A program made the translations under genes and the position numbers. From Citrobacter phage Shae_phiSM: a DNA stretch of 36,753 nucleotides. Of this stretch, positions 3,561 to 36,560 are shown piece by piece. How positions within the stretch are numbered: position 1 is the first letter of the stretch; every line of letters begins with the position of its first letter. Below the pieces are notes generated by a model. The model was not told the DNA's origin, did not search any database, and saw only the letters and a list, made by a program, of their open reading frames with translations. The stretch lies in the sequence record OR565851. One strand, given 5' to 3'.

Positions 3561-4745
3561 ATGAGTGAAACTCGTTTTCATGGTGCCCGTGTTACGGAAA
3601 ATACCGACCTGGTAACAGCGATTAACGATGTTGATTCCAGCGTTATCGGTATCGTGGCAACGGCGGATGATGCGGACGCGGAGCTGTTCCCGCTGAACAA
3701 GCCCACACTGCTGACCCGCGTCAATGACGTGCTGGGAAAATGCGGAACAACGGGGACGCTTTATCGTGCGCTTAAGGCCATCGCAGACCAGGTGAGCACA
3801 AAGGTGATCGTCGTTCGCGTGGCTGAACACAAAGAAGAAGACGGAAAGACGCAGGATCAACTGGTTATCGGTGGTTCTGAGGATGACGGCAGCTATACGG
3901 GGATGTATGCGCTGCTTGTTGCAGAGCAGGATGAAAGCATCGGATACCGTCCGCGTATTCTGGCCGCGCCGGAGCTGGACACGGAGGCGGTAACAAAATC
4001 CCTGTGCGTGATTGCGGGTAAACTGCGCGCGTTTGTGTATGCCACATGTCATGGTTGTAACACGATGGCTGAGGCGATTACCTACCGCCAGAAATTCAAC
4101 GAACGTGAGGTGATGCTCTTATGGCCTGACTTCATCGCCTACAACCCGAAAAGTGGCAAAAACGAAACGTTCCCCGCGCCTGCTTATGCGTGCGGCCTTC
4201 GTGCGTACATTGACCATGAGCAGGGCTGGCACAAATCGCTGTCCAACGTTCCGGTTAAAAATGTGCTGGGAATGTCCAGGCATGTGTTCTGGTCGTTGCA
4301 GGCCGAAGACAGTGATGCCAACAGCCTCAATAACAAAGAAATCACGACCATTATTCGTCGCAACGGGCTCCGCTTCTGGGGCAACCGCACACCGGAAACG
4401 AACGCCTACATCTTTGAGGTGTATACCCGAACCGCACAGGTGCTGGCTGATTCAATTGCGGAAGCGCAGTTTGAAACCATCGACAGTCCACTGACGCCTG
4501 CGAACGTGAAGGATGTTATCAGTGCCATCAGGGCAAAACTGGATTCGCTGGTTACTGCCGGGAAACTGATTGGTGCGGAGTGCTGGTATGACGTGGTGGA
4601 TAACGGCACCACGAATTTACGTCAGGGACGTGTGCGTATTCGCTACAAATATACGCCCGTTCCGCCACTGGAAGACATGGAGCTTTACCAGACGTTTACT
4701 GATGAATTCTTTGGTCCCGCATTTGCGGTGCTGGGAGGTGCCTGA
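3561..4745 (+). CDS. FI: contractile tail sheath protein
   Basis: 394-aa ORF with SD AAGGGG; P2 FI-like sequence and size; stop overlaps the FII start (ATGA). Confidence 0.9.
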   Translation: MSETRFHGARVTENTDLVTAINDVDSSVIGIVATADDADAELFPLNKPTLLTRVNDVLGKCGTTGTLYRALKAIADQVSTKVIVVRVAEHKEEDGKTQDQLVIGGSEDDGSYTGMYALLVAEQDESIGYRPRILAAPELDTEAVTKSLCVIAGKLRAFVYATCHGCNTMAEAITYRQKFNEREVMLLWPDFIAYNPKSGKNETFPAPAYACGLRAYIDHEQGWHKSLSNVPVKNVLGMSRHVFWSLQAEDSDANSLNNKEITTIIRRNGLRFWGNRTPETNAYIFEVYTRTAQVLADSIAEAQFETIDSPLTPANVKDVISAIRAKLDSLVTAGKLIGAECWYDVVDNGTTNLRQGRVRIRYKYTPVPPLEDMELYQTFTDEFFGPAFAVLGGA

Positions 4746-19374: not shown

Positions 19375-20175
19375 TTAACCGCGCTTCGCCTTCTGCGTCG
19401 CGGTGGTTTTTCGTGTTGCAGGCTTCCGCGTTGTCTTTTTACTTTTGCTGCTTTCGTCCTGCGCCTGCTGTGCGCTGGCGTCTTCTGGTGCGGCTGCGGA
19501 ATCGGCTTTTTTCAGGGCGCGGGAAAGGGTTGCAATCTCGCGTTTCACACCTGCGTTCGGGTTCAGGTGCATCGCTTCGCGCAGCAGCTTCAGTGATAAG
19601 GCCATGTTGTCTGCATCGGTCAGACCACGACGGGCAAAGGCGCACGCCTTGCATAATTTGGCGCGTACTTCGTCCGGCATATCCTGGTCTGTGACAATCT
19701 CCCGGAGGATGTCCAGTGGTTCGATAAAGGCGGACAAATCCGCGTCGGCATCCGTCCCGGCCTGCGTCAGCACCGGGTTGCAGATTTCTTCGGTCAGCAC
19801 TGTGGCAGCAGTACGGCCAAAGTTATCCGGCATGATGAGGTTGTGACGGACCACATACGCACCAATACGCAACGCCAGCGGAAGATCGCCGCAGTCAATC
19901 GCCCACACCATCAGCGTGGCAATCACTTCATCCTGCTGCCCGCCGTCAGCCTCCAGCGTTCCCTCAATCCAGCCGGAAAAATCCGGCAACAACTCTTTTT
20001 TGATGGCGGCTTTCGCGCTTCTGGCCTGTACGCCCTTAAGCCGGGCCTGTGCCAGACGCAGACGATACAGCACCTCTTCATGCGCGGTACGCGCGGCGTG
20101 GTCCACGCCTTCATTCGCCCGGCCTGCGCGCTGTGCCATCACGTTCTGCCAGTGTTGCTGTGCAGGAGTAATCAT
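19375..20175 (-). CDS. M: terminase endonuclease (small) subunit M
   Basis: 266-aa ORF with SD GGAGAG, basic C-terminal tail, gpM position. Confidence 0.8.
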   Translation of the reverse strand: MITPAQQHWQNVMAQRAGRANEGVDHAARTAHEEVLYRLRLAQARLKGVQARSAKAAIKKELLPDFSGWIEGTLEADGGQQDEVIATLMVWAIDCGDLPLALRIGAYVVRHNLIMPDNFGRTAATVLTEEICNPVLTQAGTDADADLSAFIEPLDILREIVTDQDMPDEVRAKLCKACAFARRGLTDADNMALSLKLLREAMHLNPNAGVKREIATLSRALKKADSAAAPEDASAQQAQDESSKSKKTTRKPATRKTTATQKAKRG

Positions 20176-22287: not shown

Positions 22288-24039
22288 ATGATTCAGGACG
22301 CTTTTGTGCGCCAGCGTGCGCGGCAACTTTACTGGCAGGGTTATCCGCCCGCAGAAATATCACGTCTGATGGGAATAAACCCGAACACGATTTATGCGTG
22401 GAAAAAACGCGACCAGTGGGATGAAACGCCACCCGTGCAGCGTGTCACGCAGTCCATCGATGCGCGCCTCATCCAGCTTACTGAAAAACAGAATAAAACA
22501 GGCGGTGACTTTAAGGAAATAGACCTGCTGACCCGGCAGCTTAAAAAGCTGCATGATGGCCAGCCGGATGTGATGGCCGCAGGAAAGAAAGGCCGGGCGA
22601 AAAAACTCAAAAATCATTTCACGCCGGAACAGATTGCCGCACTGCGGGAAAAAATCATCAGCAGGCTGGAGTGGCATCAGCGGGGCTGGTTTGACTCCCT
22701 GACACTTTGCAGGGAAGCCGGGATACGTAACAGGATGATCCTGAAATCCCGACAGATTGGGGCGACCTGGTATTTTGCACAGGAAGCTCTGCTGATGGCG
22801 CTGCGTGACGATGTGGCGCAACCTTACCAGCGTAACCAGATTTTTTTGTCTGCGTCGCGTCGTCAGGCGTTCCAGTTTAAAAGCATTATTCAGAAGGCCG
22901 CGGCTGAAGTTGATGTGGAGCTGAAAGGGGGCGATAAAATCATCCTCTCCAACGGCGCAGAGCTGCATTTTCTCGGCACTTCTGCTGCGTCGGCACAGTC
23001 CTATACGGGCAATTTTTATTTTGATGAATTTTTCTGGGTCAGTCGCTTTGCTGAACTGCGCAAGGTGGCTGGCGCTATGGCAACCCTCAGCGGACTGCGG
23101 CGCACCTACTTCTCCACGCCATCCACCGAAACGCACGAGGCATACGCCTACTGGAACGGCGACCGCTGGAACGAGAAAAAGGCCTCGCATAAACGCCAGC
23201 GTTTTTCTGTGGACTGGAAAACGCTGCATAACGGGCTTATCTGCCCTGACCGGACGTGGCGGCAAATTGTCACGCTGGAAGATGTGGTTAATCACGGCTG
23301 GAAACACACCGATATCGACGAAATTCGTGATGAAAACACCGAAGACGAGTTCCTCAATCTCTATATGTGTGAGTTTGTCCGCGAAGGGGAATCGGCATTT
23401 AACCTGAATATCCTGATTGGCTGCGGTGTTGACGGATACGACGACTGGAAAGACTGGAAACCTTTTGCTCCCCGCCCGATGGGGAATCGTCCGGTATGGA
23501 TTGGGTATGACGCAAACGGCAGCAGTGGCAACGGCGACAGCGGCGCTGTGTCCGTGGTGGTTCCTCCGTCTGTTCCTGGTGGCCGTTTTCGAACGGTGGA
23601 GACGCGACGCGTTCAGGGGCTGGAGTTTGAAGAACAGGCCAGAGTCATTGAAGAGTTCACGTGTCGCTACAACGTGGAACACATCGGCATTGATGTGACG
23701 GGCGGGAACGGGGAGGCTGTTTATCAGATAGTGAAACGGTTTTTCCCTGCCGCTATTCCGTACACCTTCACGCTGTCATCAAAACGGTCGCTGGTACTGA
23801 AAATGCTGCAAATAATGCGTGCCGGGCGGTGGGAATACGATCGCGCCGAACGCGAGCTGGTCGCGGCCTTTAACGCCGTGCGTAAGGTGAAAACACCGGG
23901 CGGCTTTATCACTTACGAAACGGACCGCGCGAGGGGGATCAGCCACGGCGACCTTGCGTGGGCAACCATGCTTGCTGTCATTAACGAACCAATTGGCGGC
24001 GAAGGAGAAAACGAGCGTTTCACGGTTATGGAGTTCTGA
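22288..24039 (+). CDS. P: terminase ATPase (large) subunit P
   Basis: 583-aa ORF with SD AGGGGGAG; gpP-like. Confidence 0.9.
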   Translation: MIQDAFVRQRARQLYWQGYPPAEISRLMGINPNTIYAWKKRDQWDETPPVQRVTQSIDARLIQLTEKQNKTGGDFKEIDLLTRQLKKLHDGQPDVMAAGKKGRAKKLKNHFTPEQIAALREKIISRLEWHQRGWFDSLTLCREAGIRNRMILKSRQIGATWYFAQEALLMALRDDVAQPYQRNQIFLSASRRQAFQFKSIIQKAAAEVDVELKGGDKIILSNGAELHFLGTSAASAQSYTGNFYFDEFFWVSRFAELRKVAGAMATLSGLRRTYFSTPSTETHEAYAYWNGDRWNEKKASHKRQRFSVDWKTLHNGLICPDRTWRQIVTLEDVVNHGWKHTDIDEIRDENTEDEFLNLYMCEFVREGESAFNLNILIGCGVDGYDDWKDWKPFAPRPMGNRPVWIGYDANGSSGNGDSGAVSVVVPPSVPGGRFRTVETRRVQGLEFEEQARVIEEFTCRYNVEHIGIDVTGGNGEAVYQIVKRFFPAAIPYTFTLSSKRSLVLKMLQIMRAGRWEYDRAERELVAAFNAVRKVKTPGGFITYETDRARGISHGDLAWATMLAVINEPIGGEGENERFTVMEF

Positions 24040-25085
24040 TGAGCAGAAAAAATAAAAAAGTGCGCATGAGTTCACGCATTGATCTCGCTGATGCGCTCAG
24101 GAAAGAATCGTCTCTCAGTGCATTCACATTTGATGGTCCTTATCGCCTGACCGGGCATGATTTGCTGGACAATATGTACTGTGCTGATAACGGGCGGTGG
24201 TATGAAACCCCGGTGGACTGGTACGGTCTGGCAAGAGCCGCCCGGCAAACGTCCTGGCATCAGTCTGCGCTTTACTTTAAGCGCAATGTATTGCTCGGTT
24301 GCTATATTCCGCACCCGCTGCTTTCCCGGCAGGATTTCTCGGCGCTGGCGCTGGACTGGTTTGTGTTCGGTAACGCATTCCTTGAGCTTCGGAGCAATAT
24401 GCTCGGCGAACCGCTTAAATTACGGCACGCCCTGGCGAAATACATGCGACGCGGAAGTGATCTTGAATCATGGTGGTATGTGCAGGATGGCAAGGATGCG
24501 TTTCAGTTTCGCCCTGGCAAAGTGTGCCACCTGATGAATCCGGATATTAACCAGGAAATCTACGGCATGCCGGAATATCTCGGCGCATTACTCTCGGCCA
24601 GCCTGTCTCATTCGGCGGACATGTTCAGAAAACTGTACTACGACAATGGATCCCACGCCGGGTGCATTATCTACATCGGTGCAGCGCAGGTAAACCGCGA
24701 AAGCATGGACTCCCTGAAAGAAACGTTACAGGGTGCACGTGGTGGTGGTGCGTTTAAAAATGTGCTCATTCATGCGCCCAACGGGGGCAAAGAGGGGGTG
24801 CAAATTTTGCCGTTCCAGCAGATCACCGCAAAGGATGAGTTCATGAATGTTAAGGCGGCATCCCGTGATGATGTGCTGGCTGCGCACCGCGTTCCGCCGC
24901 AACTGATGGGGGCGATGCCGGGTGAAAAAAGTGCGTTTGGTGATGTGGAGAAGGCCGCGCGGGTTTACGCAATTAACGAGCTGATGCCCGTCATGGAGGC
25001 CATGAAGCACATCAATGACTGGCTTGGCGAAGAGGTGATCCGCTTTAACCCTTACGCACTGTTAGACACCCAGCCCACATCCTGA
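24039..25085 (+). CDS. Q: portal protein Q
   Basis: 348-aa ORF, ATGA overlap with P; gpQ-like. Confidence 0.9.
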   Translation: MSRKNKKVRMSSRIDLADALRKESSLSAFTFDGPYRLTGHDLLDNMYCADNGRWYETPVDWYGLARAARQTSWHQSALYFKRNVLLGCYIPHPLLSRQDFSALALDWFVFGNAFLELRSNMLGEPLKLRHALAKYMRRGSDLESWWYVQDGKDAFQFRPGKVCHLMNPDINQEIYGMPEYLGALLSASLSHSADMFRKLYYDNGSHAGCIIYIGAAQVNRESMDSLKETLQGARGGGAFKNVLIHAPNGGKEGVQILPFQQITAKDEFMNVKAASRDDVLAAHRVPPQLMGAMPGEKSAFGDVEKAARVYAINELMPVMEAMKHINDWLGEEVIRFNPYALLDTQPTS

Positions 25086-25112
25086 CGCGCTTCGCTTGTC
25101 TGCTGCTTCGCC

Positions 25113-25135
25113 GGGGCATAAAAAATTTATGCCCC
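25113..25135. repeat. hairpin downstream of Q (terminator or packaging-region element)
   Basis: ggggcataaa-aaa-tttatgcccc, 10-bp perfect stem; no following T-run. Confidence 0.35.
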
Positions 25136-25509
25136 GACTCTCCAGCTCCTGTATCAATCAGATAATTTCACGACGCCTTCCAGTATATCGCCACCATCGA
25201 CGGTCAGACTCTTACGCAATCCCACCGCGTTGACTGTATTTTCTCGCCGCCTCAGTGCGATTTTGACGGCCTTACCTTTCACCCCATCAAATCAAAAGCC
25301 CTCACGTCTTTTTCACGCTCAGCGTGAGAAATATGGACATTCTGTTGTGTCGCTGCGACATCGCTCAGGGAATGCTATTTACCTCCTGAAACGCGGGCTG
25401 TTCCCCCGTCACCTGCGCGCAGAAAAAACGCGTTTTTTTGTGCACGCACGGATCCTTGACGGATCCAGCCGCCACGCGGGCCGGAAGGGCAAAAAGTCGT
25501 TCAAAAAAA

Positions 25510-25536
25510 TTGTGCAAATTTGTGCACTATTGTGCA
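25510..25536. repeat. three direct repeats of TTGTGCA at exact 10-bp spacing (iteron/operator-like)
   Basis: ttgtgcaaat ttgtgcacta ttgtgcag; helical phasing suggests a regulator binding site; lies upstream of a TTGACA -35-like hexamer at 25557-25562. Confidence 0.5.
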
Positions 25537-25695
25537 GTCAGAAAATGGCCATATATTTGACATGCGGGTTAGCTTTGCGTTAATTTGGATTGACTAAAAA
25601 TTTCAGTGAATCGGGCGAAGTGGATCTGTAAACACAAAATCCCGGTTAACTAAGTAACGTTAATCTAAGAACATGTTTGAAGCGGAGGGGTTAAT

Positions 25696-25776: not shown

Positions 25777-25791
25777 ATGGGTGAAGGAAAG

Positions 25792-26295
25792 ATGACTCTG
25801 GATTCAACAGCGATACAAATCATTAGTAACGTGATAGTCCTGTTTGGCGTCATAGTTGCTATCTGCACGATTATCTATAACATTCGTACAGCCAAAAAAA
25901 CACAGACTGCTAATTTTTTATTTGAAAGTCGCCAGGACAAAGAATACCTGGAATCGCTACATCTTCTCAGACGCATTCATCGTTCAGGAAAATCGTTTCG
26001 TGCTTATGTCTTTCCCTGTGAAGGCGGGGTGATTACGGAAGAAGAGATGACTGAACGTCGCAAATTCCAGTACATTCTTAACTTTTATGAGAGAGTGGCC
26101 GTAAGTATCCGTGAAGGGATTTACGATGAAAGGATGATTAAGCGAACATCCTTTACAACGGTCGTTACGACTTATGATATTGCGGAACCCCTGATTAAAG
26201 CCATCAGAGAGGATACCCAATCAAAAACGGCTTACCAGGAATTTGAGTGGTTGGTGAAGAGATGGAAAGCCAGGCCACTTGAGAAAGATGTGTAG
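25792..26295 (+). CDS. membrane-anchored protein of unknown function (one N-terminal TM helix plus ~130-aa cytoplasmic domain); candidate defence/exclusion cargo
   Basis: ORF 25777..26295 trimmed to the ATG at 25792 (SD AAGGA); TM helix IQIISNVIVLFGVIVAICTIIYNI; about 40% GC; sits where P2 carries old/tin between gene A and the packaging genes. Confidence 0.7.
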   Translation: MTLDSTAIQIISNVIVLFGVIVAICTIIYNIRTAKKTQTANFLFESRQDKEYLESLHLLRRIHRSGKSFRAYVFPCEGGVITEEEMTERRKFQYILNFYERVAVSIREGIYDERMIKRTSFTTVVTTYDIAEPLIKAIREDTQSKTAYQEFEWLVKRWKARPLEKDV

Positions 26296-26701: not shown

Positions 26702-27661
26702 TTACTCCTTGTCCATTGCGTACAGCCCATTAACCAGAGCAAACTGTGGCACCCCGTCCGCGATGAAAGTCGCATTAACTCCGCAGGCTTCGCGGATAGC
26801 GGGTGCCACAATCTCCGCCCCGCCACCGACAACCATCACCCGCCCGTAACCCGAAAAACCCGCCAGCGCGCGGATCACGCGTTGTTTCAGTGTTTCTTCC
26901 TTTTCACGAATAACCGCCATCAGGCTGGCGTAATGCGCGTCATTGTGGATGTGCTGGCGCAACCAGGCTTCATCATGGCGATGTTCGATAATGGTATTGG
27001 CGATGTGGTGACTGGTACGCATACCGTTAGTGGCCATCACCGACAGTACGGCATCGGCCATCAGGGAAACGCCTACGTGTGGATCGCAAAACACCTGGCT
27101 GATACCTGCCAGTTGTCCCTGAACCTTTGCCACATCCAGCGTGGTTCCGCCCAAATCCACAATCAGCAGGGATTCAAACGGACTCATGTCAGCCAGTGCT
27201 TTAAAGCCAGCCGGAATGGATTCAGGCATAACCCGTACATTACGGATAGTGAATGCCTCACCGTTCTGGTACTCCACCGGGCGCATAACGTTCGCTTTTT
27301 TGCGGTTGATGTTGGTCATATCCGGCTGGGCGTTTGTGTCGAAATACTCGCTCAGTGGCAGGGTGACAACAACATCCACCTCCTGTGGCGTGATGCCTGA
27401 TTTGACCAGCGCGTGATGAATGGCAATGACATTCACATCGCTGTACTGGTATTGCGTGTCGGTCGTCTGGACAAAGCGATCGCTGACCGGATCAAAACCA
27501 TAGCGCACGCCATCAAGCATATAGTTCGCGGGCTGCGTGCCACCGAACGGCGCAGACCATTCCGACTTGAAGCTGTTCGGGCTGATGGCGTTGCGGCGTT
27601 CGCCGTTCTCAGTCCATGCCAGCTTGATGTTGGTGGAGCCGTCGTCGATACAAATTTTCAT
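26702..27661 (-). CDS. parM: ParM/StbA-like actin-type segregation ATPase
   Basis: 319 aa; MKICIDDGSTNIKLAW...YSDVNVIAIHHAL...LIVDLGGTTLDV...VMVVGGGAEI matches the ParM actin-fold motifs (R1 ParM begins MLVFIDDGSTNIKLQW from memory); SD AAGGA. Confidence 0.85.
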   Translation of the reverse strand: MKICIDDGSTNIKLAWTENGERRNAISPNSFKSEWSAPFGGTQPANYMLDGVRYGFDPVSDRFVQTTDTQYQYSDVNVIAIHHALVKSGITPQEVDVVVTLPLSEYFDTNAQPDMTNINRKKANVMRPVEYQNGEAFTIRNVRVMPESIPAGFKALADMSPFESLLIVDLGGTTLDVAKVQGQLAGISQVFCDPHVGVSLMADAVLSVMATNGMRTSHHIANTIIEHRHDEAWLRQHIHNDAHYASLMAVIREKEETLKQRVIRALAGFSGYGRVMVVGGGAEIVAPAIREACGVNATFIADGVPQFALVNGLYAMDKE

Positions 27662-27692: not shown

Positions 27693-27803
27693 TTTACGGG
27701 ATTCTGAAATCCCGTTTTTGCCTGTTTTATGCGCGCTTCATATATCGCGGCGCGTTTTTTGCTCATTTACGGGATTTGTGAATCCCGTTTTTGTCTGTTT
27801 TTT
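27693..27803. repeat. two ~36-bp direct repeats, each with an internal hairpin (parC-like or recombination footprint)
   Basis: 27693-27728 tttacgggattctgaaatcccgtttttgcctgtttt and 27766-27803 tttacgggatttgtgaatcccgtttttgtctgtttttt, about 86% identical; the second copy lies within the last ~20 codons of gene A, the first in the A-parM intergenic region. Confidence 0.6.
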
Positions 27804-30560
27804 GTTTCCACTGGTCAGGCCACCCCGCAGCAGGTCTGCTTTGCGGCGGGCGCGTTCAGTGGTTTCACTGATTCTCTGTGCGTGCTCTGCGTCGCGGATG
27901 GCGCGCAGCATGTCAGAAAGCACGGTAACGGGTGTTTTCATGGTGTTCTGGTCTTGCTGAAGTGTGGATGCCAGGCGTGCGGCGGCTTCAGGGTCTGATA
28001 CCCCCAGCTGTTCCAGATAGCTGGCGACCGGGTTATGGCGGATCTCCGTGCTGCTTACGCCGTGATTACGGCTCAGGCGTTGCCAGAGCTGCGTGATTCG
28101 GCTGTCCGGGCGGGTATCCGGTTTGCGTACAATTTCAAATCCCTGCGGTGCAATGATGCTGCCGTCAACGTACAGACTGCCGCCCCGTAACAGGTGCTGC
28201 ATCTGCTGTTCACCGATATGCAGGCCGAGAGATTCAGCAGACTCCCGCCATTCTTTAGCGAGTAATTCGTGGTTATCAGGCAAAGGCCGCGGCTGTTTGC
28301 GGCTCTGTGTCCAGCTCTGCATTTCATCACTGCTGTTTTTTGCCTGTTTGTCACGAAGCGAACGCATCAGCGCCCGGCGTTCGTGCCGTTTCAGTGAGCG
28401 CATCCATTCATTCACTTCAACGCCGTCAGGAAGCTGCGGCCACGGTGTTGGCCGTTCTTCCGGCTGTTCTGTCCCGTTGTTGTCCGTTTCTTGTACACTG
28501 GGACAGTTATTGCCACGAGTCCAAGGGGCGGCAGGGCCGCCCTGAAGGTCAAAACCATTTTCGTGGGCGCTGCCTTCCTGTTCCGGTTTACGTCTTACCA
28601 GCTTCCAGTTATCCGGGTGCGTGCACACACGGGAGGATTCCCCGATGAGTGGTGACCAGATCCCGTAAATCTGTACACTCTGTTCGCCGTAATCGTTCAG
28701 CTCATCGGCGAGGTCGTAGGCGGTGCGAATCAGGTAGTCTTTGCGTGGAACAAGTACGCCGCCCTGTTTCTCTATGTAGGTGGCAAAACATCCGGCATCA
28801 GCGGCAGCGAGTACCGCATCCATTGCGTCATCCTTCAGCCGTTGCGGGCCTTCCGGGTTGCGTGCCATCTGGCTGGCAAGGCGGCGGAGTTCACGCCACA
28901 CCTGACGGGAGGGGATGCCAAAGAACTGGAACTGGCGGACCCGGTGAAGGCGTGCCCAACCGATGGCGCGCTCCACGCTCTCGGCCATTGATTTTCCGGT
29001 TTCGTGGTCAACGCGTGGTTTGCCCGTTTTCGGGTCGATGCCATCCACGGCGCGGCTGTCCAGGTTTTTCCCGATGTAGGTCGCGATATAGCTGGTTGGT
29101 GTGCCTTTTGAGCCGTCGACATACTCCACTTTAAAGCGCGGAGTAATATCATTGCCCAGCTCGTGGCGGTCTTCCTGAATGGCAATATCGCGGGTGATGG
29201 CCACGATGCTGTCGATTTCTTCCGGATGAGCAAAGACCATCATATGCCAGTGCACGGTGCCGTCATGGTGAGGCTCCACCGTGCGGATGCCATACCAGCG
29301 CAGGCCGTCGCGGTTCAGTTTTTTGCGGACCGCCGCAAAAAACGTGTTAACCAGGTAATCGCTGGAGTCGCGCATGGTGGCCCCGTTCCATTTGGGGTTC
29401 GGATGACCGTTCTCCGTTGTTGCGTGGTATTTTGACGGGCAGGTGACAGTCAGAAACACCGCTCTGTCGCCACGGGCTTCGGCCAGAAGTTCCAGTCCCT
29501 TCATGGTGGCCATCATTTCTGCCTTACGGTGAACCGGGTTACTTACTCCCGCGTAATACACTGTCTCGAGATCAATCGTGAACCCGTCTTCGTTTTCCAG
29601 CATGAAACTTTTCAGGAAATCGCGTGTTTTCTCGCGCTGTGCGCGAAACTCGCTTAACGCGTCCTGGCTCAGATAGGGCGATGTTTTTCTGGAAACCAGA
29701 CAGGCGGCGCGGAGTTGTTCTTCTCTCCACTCGCAACGTAACAGCCATAGTTTGCGTTTCCACCATTCCGCACAGGTCAGGCGAAGGATTGCGCCCGGCA
29801 GCAGCTCTGTGTCCGGTTCGTTCCTCCGGTCTTTGTCTGTTGTCAGTGCGTCATAATGTGGAGGCATGGCGTGCAGGTGTAACGCCATGCGGGCCAGCAT
29901 CTGATACGCCTTCAGCGTTACATCCATGGTCAGTTCGCCATCAGTCGCGCCAAAGCCATCGCAGAGTTTTTCGAAGGTGCTGCTGAACATCGCCGCCGTC
30001 ATGGTGGCCAGCGTCTGTATCTGGTGTTTGTTGAGCTGCGGCAGGTAAAGCAAATCGTCCAGGCGTTCGCGTCCAGCAAGGGAGCGATAACCCGGTGTCA
30101 GCCAGCGGTGATCGGTGCGGTCCAGACGTTCGAATATTTTGCGCAGGGTTCCGCGTGCATAGCGTTCCGCCTGCCAGCTCTTTTTGCCTTTCCGGCGATC
30201 GGCTTCCTGTTTTTTGCGCAGGAAGGAGAGGTGGCGAATAAGCGGATCGCGCAGATAGGACGGCAGCAGGCGCAGCGAGGCCATGGCTTCATCCACCGCG
30301 CCGCGTGCCTGTTTTCTGGCGTCTCCTGCCAGTGTGATGGTTTTGTCCTGTTTTTCCTGTGCGTCCAAGCTTTTATTAATCAGGTTGCCCAGCGGCGTGG
30401 CGGAGAACGCCGCATCAGCCATTTCCTGGCGGCGCTCGTTCTCTACCCGGTAGGCACCCAGCCAGGAGGAAAGCGCGGATTCAGGAGCGGGGATCCCCGT
30501 TCCTTCACGCCCCACCGCGTGGCGCGGTTGTTGCCAGTCCCTGATGTACTCTGCCGTCAT
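27738..30560 (-). CDS. A: rolling-circle replication initiation endonuclease (gpA family)
   Basis: 940-aa ORF with HUH-like motif TVHWHMMVF; gpA-like; longer than I recall for P2 A, so start or extensions are uncertain. Confidence 0.85.
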   Translation of the reverse strand: MTAEYIRDWQQPRHAVGREGTGIPAPESALSSWLGAYRVENERRQEMADAAFSATPLGNLINKSLDAQEKQDKTITLAGDARKQARGAVDEAMASLRLLPSYLRDPLIRHLSFLRKKQEADRRKGKKSWQAERYARGTLRKIFERLDRTDHRWLTPGYRSLAGRERLDDLLYLPQLNKHQIQTLATMTAAMFSSTFEKLCDGFGATDGELTMDVTLKAYQMLARMALHLHAMPPHYDALTTDKDRRNEPDTELLPGAILRLTCAEWWKRKLWLLRCEWREEQLRAACLVSRKTSPYLSQDALSEFRAQREKTRDFLKSFMLENEDGFTIDLETVYYAGVSNPVHRKAEMMATMKGLELLAEARGDRAVFLTVTCPSKYHATTENGHPNPKWNGATMRDSSDYLVNTFFAAVRKKLNRDGLRWYGIRTVEPHHDGTVHWHMMVFAHPEEIDSIVAITRDIAIQEDRHELGNDITPRFKVEYVDGSKGTPTSYIATYIGKNLDSRAVDGIDPKTGKPRVDHETGKSMAESVERAIGWARLHRVRQFQFFGIPSRQVWRELRRLASQMARNPEGPQRLKDDAMDAVLAAADAGCFATYIEKQGGVLVPRKDYLIRTAYDLADELNDYGEQSVQIYGIWSPLIGESSRVCTHPDNWKLVRRKPEQEGSAHENGFDLQGGPAAPWTRGNNCPSVQETDNNGTEQPEERPTPWPQLPDGVEVNEWMRSLKRHERRALMRSLRDKQAKNSSDEMQSWTQSRKQPRPLPDNHELLAKEWRESAESLGLHIGEQQMQHLLRGGSLYVDGSIIAPQGFEIVRKPDTRPDSRITQLWQRLSRNHGVSSTEIRHNPVASYLEQLGVSDPEAAARLASTLQQDQNTMKTPVTVLSDMLRAIRDAEHAQRISETTERARRKADLLRGGLTSGNKKQTKTGFTNPVNEQKTRRDI

Positions 30561-35555: not shown

Positions 35556-36560
35556 ATGTCAATTAAGAAGCTCGAAGATGGTCGTTATTTGCTGGACATC
35601 AGGCCGAACGGACGCAAGGGAAAGCGCGTGCGTAAGGTATTTGACAAAAAATCGGTAGCGGTGGCCACTGAACGCTACATCATGGCGAACGCTGAAAAGC
35701 GGGAATATATACAGGGCTACCGTGATCGCCGAACGCTAAATGATTTGCTTGAGTTGTGGTGGATGTATCACGGTCAACACAGGCGTAAGGCGGAAGAAGA
35801 CCGAAAACAACTGTGCAACATAATCAATGAGCTTGGCGCTGATATGCAGGCTGTGGATCTTGATAAGCTGAAAATTATCGCGTGGCGTTCTCAAAAGATA
35901 GCTGCTGGATTGAAACCGTCATCTGCTAACAGGTACATGAACCGACTATCCGGCATGTTTACTGTTCTGAAAAGAATAGGCCTTTGGGATGCAGAACATC
36001 CGGTAAGGGGAATTTCTATTCTTTATGTATCCCCGCGAGAAATGGCTTTCCTGTCCCAGAAGGAAGTAGCGCTATTGCTCGATACACTGGAGGGCGACTA
36101 CTGGCGTGTTGCGCTTTTGTGTTTAAGCACAGGGGCGCGCTGGAGTGAAGCTTGTAAGCTTCGTGGTGAACAGATAGTTCATAACCGTGTAACGTTTCTT
36201 GAAACCAAAAATGGCCGGAAGAGAACGGTGCCAATTTCACAGGCGGTTTGTGAGGCGATCAGAACCAGAGAAACAGGCAACTTGTTTGAGGTGAAGTACC
36301 GGGAATTCTGCCTAGCGCTGAAAAGGGTTAAGCCCGATTTGCCAAAAGGCCAGGCTGCGCATGTGCTGCGGCATACGTTCGCCAGCCATTTTGTGATGAA
36401 CGGAGGAAACATTATTGCGCTTCAGAAGATTCTTGGCCACGCAACCATTCAGCAAACAATGGCATATGCACATTTTGCACCGGATTACCTGCAGGATGCG
36501 GTGGCCCTTAATCCGCTGAAAGGTGGCGTGAGTGTCCACGCAGTGTCCACGGGGGATTAA
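35556..36560 (+). CDS. int: tyrosine integrase (P2 Int family)
   Basis: ORF 35541..36560 trimmed to ATG 35556 (SD GGAGGG); MSIKKLEDGRYLLDIRPNGRKGKR... N-terminus and C-terminal HxxR...Y catalytic-region pattern (...HVLRHTFASHF...GHATIQQTMAYAHF). Confidence 0.9.
   Translation: MSIKKLEDGRYLLDIRPNGRKGKRVRKVFDKKSVAVATERYIMANAEKREYIQGYRDRRTLNDLLELWWMYHGQHRRKAEEDRKQLCNIINELGADMQAVDLDKLKIIAWRSQKIAAGLKPSSANRYMNRLSGMFTVLKRIGLWDAEHPVRGISILYVSPREMAFLSQKEVALLLDTLEGDYWRVALLCLSTGARWSEACKLRGEQIVHNRVTFLETKNGRKRTVPISQAVCEAIRTRETGNLFEVKYREFCLALKRVKPDLPKGQAAHVLRHTFASHFVMNGGNIIALQKILGHATIQQTMAYAHFAPDYLQDAVALNPLKGGVSVHAVSTGD

Follow-up and report, generated by a model that had tools for sequence, protein, structure and literature searches.

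Genes and features downstream of the portal gene

The window, by which we mean the whole stretch of 36,753 nt that was analysed, carries head and packaging genes in a P2-like order. Pfam searches identified the genes for the small terminase subunit (TerS), the capsid, the scaffold, the large terminase subunit (TerL) and the portal protein, followed by a non-coding stretch, cargo genes and the replication gene A, with the capsid (gpN) and scaffold (gpO) genes sitting between those of TerS and TerL. The head and packaging proteins are only 35–47% identical to their P2 counterparts, the terminase proteins only 36–44%. The gpM homologue is presumed to be the cos-recognition protein and the gpP homologue the nicking and packaging enzyme. 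Coordinates of the genes and of the features discussed below are presented in Table 1.

The prophage is a member of the P88 group (Xuanwuvirus, Peduoviridae), and its nearest phages, all of this group, are 93–95% identical to it at the DNA level across positions 25000–25555. Two of them, P88 and P88_4B11, are plaque-forming phages (PMC5285337; PMC6969025), and the conserved block described below is at least 94% identical between them and the window. Among the cargo genes, the ParM-like segregation gene is of a partition type and is unusual cargo for an integrating P2-like phage; in the record of P88_4B11 (LR595891) its homologue is labelled as a plasmid partition protein. The same record annotates as a hypothetical protein (positions 205–333 there) a 42-aa open reading frame which lies between the portal gene and the cos region of the window, at 25154–25282 on the minus strand.

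Table 1. Positions of the packaging genes, the elements of the proposed cos site and the neighbouring features in the window.
Feature	Positions	Strand	Basis and remarks
TerS, small terminase subunit, gpM homologue	19375-20175	-	Pfam PF05944, E = 1.3e-36; 36% identity to P2 gpM
TerL, large terminase subunit, gpP homologue	22288-24039	+	Pfam Terminase_6N, Terminase_6C, Terminase_5; 44% identity to P2 gpP
Portal protein, gpQ homologue	24039-25085	+	Pfam PF04860; 47% identity to P2 gpQ
Hairpin, perfect 11-bp stem	25112-25136	+	starts 27 nt past the portal stop codon
Portal-side 7-nt flank AACGCGG	25390-25396		columns of GCGCGCA in the P2/186 bottom strand
Predicted cohesive-end segment (cosN)	25397-25415		plus strand GCTGTTCCCCCGTCACCTG, minus strand 5'-CAGGTGACGGGGGAACAGC; columns of the P2/186/P4 19-nt ends
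Nick-to-box spacer CGCGCAGAAAAAACGCGTT with CGCG...CGCG dyad	25416-25434		19 nt as in P2/186/P4, which also have a dyad here
Box 2, TTTTTGTGCA (minus strand TGCACAAAAA)	25435-25444		homologue of TTTTAATGCA (TGCATTAAAA) in the 55-bp P2/186/P4 core
Long spacer, variable in sequence and fixed in length	25445-25504		GGATCC-N5-GGATCC 25450-25466; dyad CCGC-CAC-GCGG 25469-25479; purine-rich box GGGCCGGAAGGGCAAAAAG 25478-25496
A-run followed by three TTGTGCA repeats with 10-bp spacing	25505-25537		repeat starts 25510, 25520, 25530; right-hand edge of cos
DUF4760 protein gene, cargo directly past cos	25777-26295	+	Pfam
ParM-like actin-type segregation protein, cargo	26702-27661	-	Pfam StbA_N and ParM C-terminal domains
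Replication gene A (gpA), adjoining the cargo	27738-30560		Pfam

A conserved non-coding block and its distribution

A block of 148 bp (25390–25537) is the only non-coding DNA that the window has in common with three kinds of relatives, namely phages whose portal proteins are only 54–78% identical, satellites which contain neither portal nor terminase genes, and a phage in an IMG/VR locus (L113) with a portal protein of 70% identity, in which 25401–25536 has been swapped in as a unit at 96% identity. An example of the first kind is Enterobacter phage phiT5282H (portal ~69% identical), which has only 25392–25536 in common with the window, at a non-coding position. The copies of the block are uniform in length, 176 of 193 being identical in this respect, and fall into 11 sequence types. 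Of 5426 complete E. coli genomes, 1148 contain the stretch 25380–25545, and in most of these the homology ends at 25536–25538, where variable cargo starts. This position of the block agrees with the cos-adjacent cargo hotspot of P2-like phages (Rousset 2022, PMC9122126).

To avoid ascertainment through a DNA motif, loci were gathered by their portal protein. The 52 loci obtained represent at least 18 genera, and their portal identities range from 31% to 100%. A profile of the block finds it after the portal gene and on the same strand in 39 of these loci, again from at least 18 genera, mostly ~150–330 nt past the portal gene and ~800–1100 nt past it in three loci.

The first-pass annotation had reasoned from P2 organisation that cos should lie beyond gene Q and had marked 25086–25500 as a candidate region. 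The location downstream of the portal gene is borne out by the present analysis, and the marked interval contains the predicted cut site; its right boundary falls short, since the conserved block continues to 25537.

Homology to the cos sites of P2, 186 and P4

A 55-bp conserved core and 5' cohesive ends of 19 nt are described for the cos sites of P2, 186 and P4 (Ziermann & Calendar 1990, as cited in PMC3931495 and PMC9122126). The profile was rebuilt from the 39 portal-ascertained blocks together with the window's own block and run against the three experimentally defined cos junctions, as annotated in their records. It matches P4 with 21.4 bits (E = 8e-8) and 186 with 13.8 bits (E = 1.8e-5), scores that none of 1000 dinucleotide shuffles reached in either case, and P2 with 4.9 bits (E = 0.0098; reached by 6 of 1000 shuffles). 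All three matches have the orientation that the portal gene predicts. This rebuilt profile gave no second match anywhere in the 36.7-kb window. The alignment pairs the 19-nt end of the P2 family with GCTGTTCCCCCGTCACCTG, TTTTAATGCA with TTTTTGTGCA, the spacer hairpin of P4 and 186 with the G/C-rich dyad of the window, and the TGCA motifs clustered distally in P4 with the TTGTGCA repeats.

Alignment to the cos regions of P2, 186 and relatives had been named as a check in the first-pass annotation. Sequence against sequence, local alignment (Smith-Waterman) of the window to the cores of P2, 186 and P4 is weak, with scores that are not significant or marginal: the best alignment, with P4, is equalled by 3–14 of 500 shuffles according to the scoring scheme, and that with P2 by 18–48 of 500. 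For 186, two of the three scoring schemes put the best pairwise alignment elsewhere, and the remaining one puts it here with a chance-level score. A reciprocal search with a profile of 111 P2-type cos sequences, which is very narrow, gave no match at the window's cos.

Architecture of the proposed cos site

When anchored on TTTTTGTGCA (in P2, TTTTAATGCA), the window aligns without gaps with P2, 186 and P4. The P2 register reads GCGCGCA / GTGCTTTCCCCGCCTCGCC / CGCCCGCTTCACGGGGCGG / TTTTAATGCA and that of the window AACGCGG / GCTGTTCCCCCGTCACCTG / CGCGCAGAAAAAACGCGTT / TTTTTGTGCA. The order of elements is shared throughout: a 7-nt flank, the cohesive end and a first spacer of 19 nt each, the anchor box with its T-run and TGCA, a second spacer of ~60 nt and the triplet of TGCA motifs. 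The sites also agree in lying downstream of the portal gene, in the same orientation to it, and in adjoining the cargo hotspot, and in each case the block is common to helper phages and satellites. The cuts, in contrast, have been measured in P2 and 186 and are predicted by position in the window.

The segment 25397–25415, which occupies the columns of the cohesive end, is the best conserved unanchored segment of the block, with 1.45 bits per column over 31 non-redundant portal-ascertained loci; in the same loci the long spacer reaches 0.72 bits per column and the sequence beyond 25537 only 0.26. Its sequence has diverged from that of P2. The canonical G+C-rich 19-nt end, GGCG(A/T)GGCGGGGA..., is not present in the homologous columns of the window, where the predicted end CAGGTGACGGGGGAACAGC stands in place of GGCG(A/T)GGCGGGGAAAGCA(C/T). 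The predicted end and that of P2 agree at 10 of 19 positions, only the CGGGG core being kept. Because of this partial match, and because the two are linked by intermediates with GGCGAGGCGGGGGAGCAAG, we interpret the window as carrying a diverged end, the canonical one being absent.

The intermediates are prophages of Morganella, Pantoea, Pectobacterium, Brenneria, Kosakonia and Yokenella with portal proteins of 54–70% identity. They combine a P2-like CTTGCTCCCCCGCCTCGCC (or ATTGCT...) in the 19-mer columns with box 2 and repeats of the P88 type, and the one from Morganella has an exact word of 15 nt in common with P2. These bridging sites resemble the window in box 2, in the TGTGCA repeats and in the spacing. 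They differ from it in the P2-like end (the reverse complement of GGCGAGGCGGGGGAGCAAG), 8 of 19 positions having changed in the lineage of the window, and in having GCGCGC on both sides of the end. In the portal-side flank columns the window has CCGCGTT against TGCGCGC in P2 (across P2, 186 and P4, (T/C)GCGCGC) and GCGCGC in the bridging lineages; the window's own GCGCGC (25415–25420) lies on the other side of the 19-mer.

On the strength of positional homology to the measured cuts of P2 and 186, the plus strand is predicted to be nicked at 25396|25397 and the minus strand at 25415|25416, to within ~2 nt. The tolerance of ~2 nt is allowed because the terminase is only 36–44% identical to that of P2, and with such identity the cuts could have shifted away from their places with respect to the boxes.

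Of 24 distinct nick-to-box spacers, 46% can form a stem of 4 bp or more as against 14% of shuffles, and the largest clade is without one. A dyad beside the nick is thus unproven as a feature of cos. Box 2 is at least 95% conserved over the 39 portal-ascertained loci from at least 18 genera, is identical to the P2/186/P4 box TGCATTAAAACC at 8 of 10 bases, and stands in the register of that box, which lies 19 nt from the top-strand nick. It is itself a fourth copy of TTGTGCA. In the long spacer, the G/C-rich dyad of the window corresponds in its offset, +20 to +40 counted from box 2, to the GC hairpin of P4 and 186.

The TGCA motifs of the distal repeats keep their distance from box 2 across the family. 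They are located at +69, +79 and +89 in the window, at +69, +79 and +91 in P2, at +69, +79 and +88/92 in 186, and at +69, +79 and +92 in P4. Among 111 P2-type sequences, 79 and 68 have TGCA at these positions; among 36 portal-ascertained loci of the P88 type, 31–34 do. It is from the present analysis that we count the TGCA triplet as a feature of the P2/186/P4 cos family. The repeat unit itself differs, being TTGTGCA in the window and (A/G)TGCA(T/A/C) in P2, 186 and P4.

Palindromes of the spacers and the hairpin of the portal operon

The first-pass annotation had listed four features in its candidate region: a hairpin at 25113–25135, a palindrome at 25423–25439, the element GGATCC-TTGAC-GGATCC at 25450–25466 and a G/C-rich stretch partly resembling the P2/186 ends. 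All four exist as DNA features and none of them is the predicted cut site, the 19-mer at 25397–25415 having gone unlisted. The hairpin lies inside a perfect 11-bp stem, CGGGGCATAAA/TTTATGCCCCG, with arms at 25112–25122 and 25126–25136 and the loop AAA; the palindrome AAAAAACGCGTTTTTTT is found where it was placed, its perfect part being 16 nt long; the GGATCC element is present as described; and the G/C-rich stretch is CCGCCACGCGGGCC at 25469–25482. Chance levels were estimated with 2000 dinucleotide-preserving shuffles of 25086–25500. A perfect stem of 11 bp was attained in 3 of them, a perfect palindrome of 16 nt in 18, and a palindromic hexamer repeated within 20 nt in 64. The hairpin folded as RNA has −26.4 kcal/mol (z = −4.2). 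From these counts and the fold, the named features are real and rarer than chance. The partial likeness noted between the G/C-rich stretch and the ends of P2/186 did not hold up: it consists, for 186, of a 9-nt word on the minus strand, GCGTGGCGG, and this match is at chance level since the local alignment is equalled in 104–233 of 300–500 shuffles.

The palindromes noted earlier either are spacer sequence between the elements of cos or, in the case of the hairpin, mark where the portal operon ends. The A6CGCGT7 palindrome is made up of sequence from the nick-to-box spacer of 19 nt and the T-run of the conserved box, and it is peculiar to the window's own sequence type. The two GGATCC copies and CCGCCACGC fall within 25451–25477, where the sequence of satellites is unrelated but equally long. 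A short G/C dyad recurs in most types, and also in P4 and 186, where the window has CCGC-CAC-GCGG.

The hairpin at 25112–25136 is an element of the end of the portal operon and a module boundary, outside cos. Its position is that of tQ in P2 and of tW in 186, as annotated in their records, and relatives carry inserts just past it, at 25148|25158. No T-run follows the hairpin, and a terminator scan made no call there; a promoter and terminator scan of the conserved block likewise gave nothing above chance. The sole Rfam match, a sub-threshold gyrA RNA at 25091–25144 on the minus strand (22 bits, with a gathering score of 45; E = 0.0097), overlies the hairpin, and we regard it as fortuitous and due to the hairpin. 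Some close relatives have inserts of ~580–640 nt, located just past the hairpin (~580 nt) in two loci (L030 and L103) and at the portal stop codon (25061|25082) in L042 and about ten others, and such inserts stretch the distance from portal to cos from 426 to ~1049 nt.

Alternative cut sites within and outside the block

The conserved block could be cos and still be cut at a place other than 25397–25415. One such reading makes the 19-nt overhang the AT-rich palindrome GAAAAAACGCGTTTTTTTG (25422–25440), cut beside the inverted heptamers GCGCGCA (25415–25421) and TGCACGC (25441–25447). The two heptamers are exactly 19 nt apart within a 15-nt inverted repeat that is 87% complementary, GCGCGCA precedes (5') the bottom-strand nick in P2 and 186, and CCGTCA...GCGCGCA resembles the P2 flank. 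However, the flank TGACGG of P2 is not conserved in P4 or 186, the right-hand heptamer varies (TGCATTT, TGCACTT and TGCAGGC in types B, D and F), the symmetry centre is not kept across types and phage and satellites have different sequences in the first half of the segment. Both the profile and the gap-free register place the segment in the columns of the 19-nt spacer of P2 and not in those of the overhang. Nicks at 25421|25422 and 25440|25441 were accordingly dropped, the heptamer and the symmetry being type-specific and the P2 register assigning the segment to the spacer, and we regard an overhang here as improbable.

The G/C-rich or purine-rich stretch at 25469–25496, the candidate of the first-pass annotation, is also a quite unlikely place for the cut. 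What speaks for it is the minus-strand word GCGTGGCGG that matches 9 nt of the 186 end, the similar composition of GGGCCGGAAGGGCA and P2 GGCGGGGAAAGCAC, and the start of record LR595891 (P88_4B11) at window position 25491. The 9-nt match is nevertheless equalled by 218–233 of 500 shuffles, and in the profile alignment the stretch pairs with the hairpin in the spacer of P4 and 186. Moreover, 25451–25477 is swapped for unrelated sequence in satellites with the same cos, and in one locus (L008) the purine-rich box is gone with the spacing, box 1, box 2 and the repeats all retained. Nucleotide 1 of LR595891 falls at 25491|25492, 76 nt from the predicted minus-strand nick; its authors removed repeats from the contig ends and set nucleotide 1 relative to reference genomes, so it is not a measured terminus. 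The purine-rich box and this record start were rejected as an end on these two grounds, the absence of the box in L008 and the choice of nucleotide 1 by the authors. An overhang formed by the GGATCC-TTGAC-GGATCC element (25450–25468), between GCACGCA and the CCGC-CAC-GCGG dyad, has even less to recommend it and is very improbable. Its series of dyad, 19 nt and minus-strand TGCGTGC superficially mimics the dyad, 19 nt and TGCGCGC of P2, but the element is out of register with P2, 186 and P4, and it was discarded as the least conserved part of the block, where satellites are wholly different. It is likewise highly unlikely that the block is a regulatory or recombination element of the cargo hotspot and that packaging starts elsewhere. 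The block does adjoin a site of gene exchange; against this reading stand its significant and colinear homology to three experimentally defined cos sites, its retention by satellites with unrelated cargo, and the lack of any other copy for the profile to find in the window.

The block in satellites

Three satellites (L009, L123 and L106) carry 25371–25537 at ~80% identity and have no portal and no terminase gene. They encode an integrase and a Toprim primase, and the annotated L009 also an ogr/delta-like protein. Apart from the cos block, L009 and L123 match the window only in an integrase-like stretch, and L106 matches it in the cos block only. To share nothing but the packaging site is the classic signature of a helper and its satellite. 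The 19-mer of the three satellites is identical to that of the window, as that of P4 is to that of P2.

The integrase-like match of L009 and L123 is to 35577–36499 of the window, at ~74% identity on the opposite strand, and it overlaps the integrase gene of the satellites. This suggests that the phage and these satellites have related integrases and perhaps related attachment sites.

Some satellite-like elements have P2-type head genes in addition to the cos block. L009 (2984–3256 region) and L123 contain a P2-family major capsid gene alongside the integrase and Toprim primase genes. A further element, L109, has its own gpM-like small terminase, gpN capsid, gpO N-terminal protease, Toprim primase and integrase, and of the cos elements it keeps only box 2 and three TGTGCA repeats. 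The cos motif is located at 4032 of the oriented locus in L123 and at 10634 in L109. In de Sousa 2023 we came across no reference to capsid genes in P4-like satellites. One other locus deserves a remark: L250 (NZ_JBQPOM010000071.1, 'Vagococcus sp. WN89Y') shows a portal protein of 100% identity and the cos block in an assembly labelled as a Firmicute, and is most likely enterobacterial DNA contaminating a Vagococcus assembly.

Proposed mechanism of packaging

Taken together, 25390–25537 is probably the cos site of a P88-type P2-like prophage, one that has diverged from its relatives in the P2/186/P4 cos family but remains colinear with them. The mechanism is the one already known, and the site an ordinary, diverged cos of this family. 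The terminase (gpM and gpP homologues) would recognise the cargo-side arm, consisting of box 2 (25435–25444) and the three TTGTGCA repeats (25510–25537); box 2, itself a TTGTGCA copy, and the repeats, which are one helical turn apart and separated from box 2 by the ~60-bp spacer of fixed length and variable sequence, are putative binding sites of the small terminase subunit. Nicks ~19 nt apart, at or within ~2 nt of the positions predicted above, would leave virion DNA with 5' overhangs, that of the left, portal-proximal end being 5'-CAGGTGACGGGGGAACAGC and that of the opposite end its complement. These ends are expected to anneal and to be ligated after injection, as is established for P2. 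By the precedent of P2 and P4, the same terminase may also package satellites with the same block.

The arrangement is reminiscent of lambda, whose cos comprises the nicking site cosN and the terminase-binding repeats of cosB and gives a 12-nt overhang. The analogy is functional: a nicking site is flanked on one side by repeats for the small terminase, and 5' overhangs anneal after injection. The two sites differ in having no sequence relation, in the length of the overhang (12 nt as against ~19 nt here) and in the families to which their terminases belong. Circular monomers are reported to be what P2 packages.

Physical ends were also looked for in public sequence data. None of 93 metagenome contigs, no IMG/VR locus and no phage-sized plasmid record ends inside the block; the truncated IMG/VR loci are cut in mid-contig, and the matches to plasmid records are all internal. 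A limited literature search found no paper that gives a P88-type cos or the predicted end sequences, and the P88 paper makes no mention of cos.

Implications for the P2 family

The finding is useful rather than surprising. P88-type cos blocks occur in about a fifth of complete E. coli genomes. A testable prediction of cos at base level becomes available for a very common group of E. coli prophages, whose deposited genomes now start at positions that are arbitrary or chosen by analogy. At 25537, the right-hand edge of cos is also the left border of the defence and cargo hotspot known in P2-like phages.

It is also conceivable, and we offer it tentatively, that the P88-type phages form a separate packaging-specificity group in the P2 family, with their own end CAGGTGACGGGGGAACAGC, their own repeat TTGTGCA and their own guild of satellites, such that P2-type and P88-type helpers would not package each other's satellites. 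If this were true, the guild of P88-type satellites would include P4-like elements with capsid, scaffold and even small-terminase genes of the P2 type.

The cos of the P2 family is better defined by a colinear architecture of ~148 bp, comprising box 2, spacers of fixed length and the TGCA triplet, than by the canonical 19-mer. A definition of this kind would help in finding cos in diverged Peduoviridae and their satellites, and in the design of cosmids and transducing particles for P88-type helpers.
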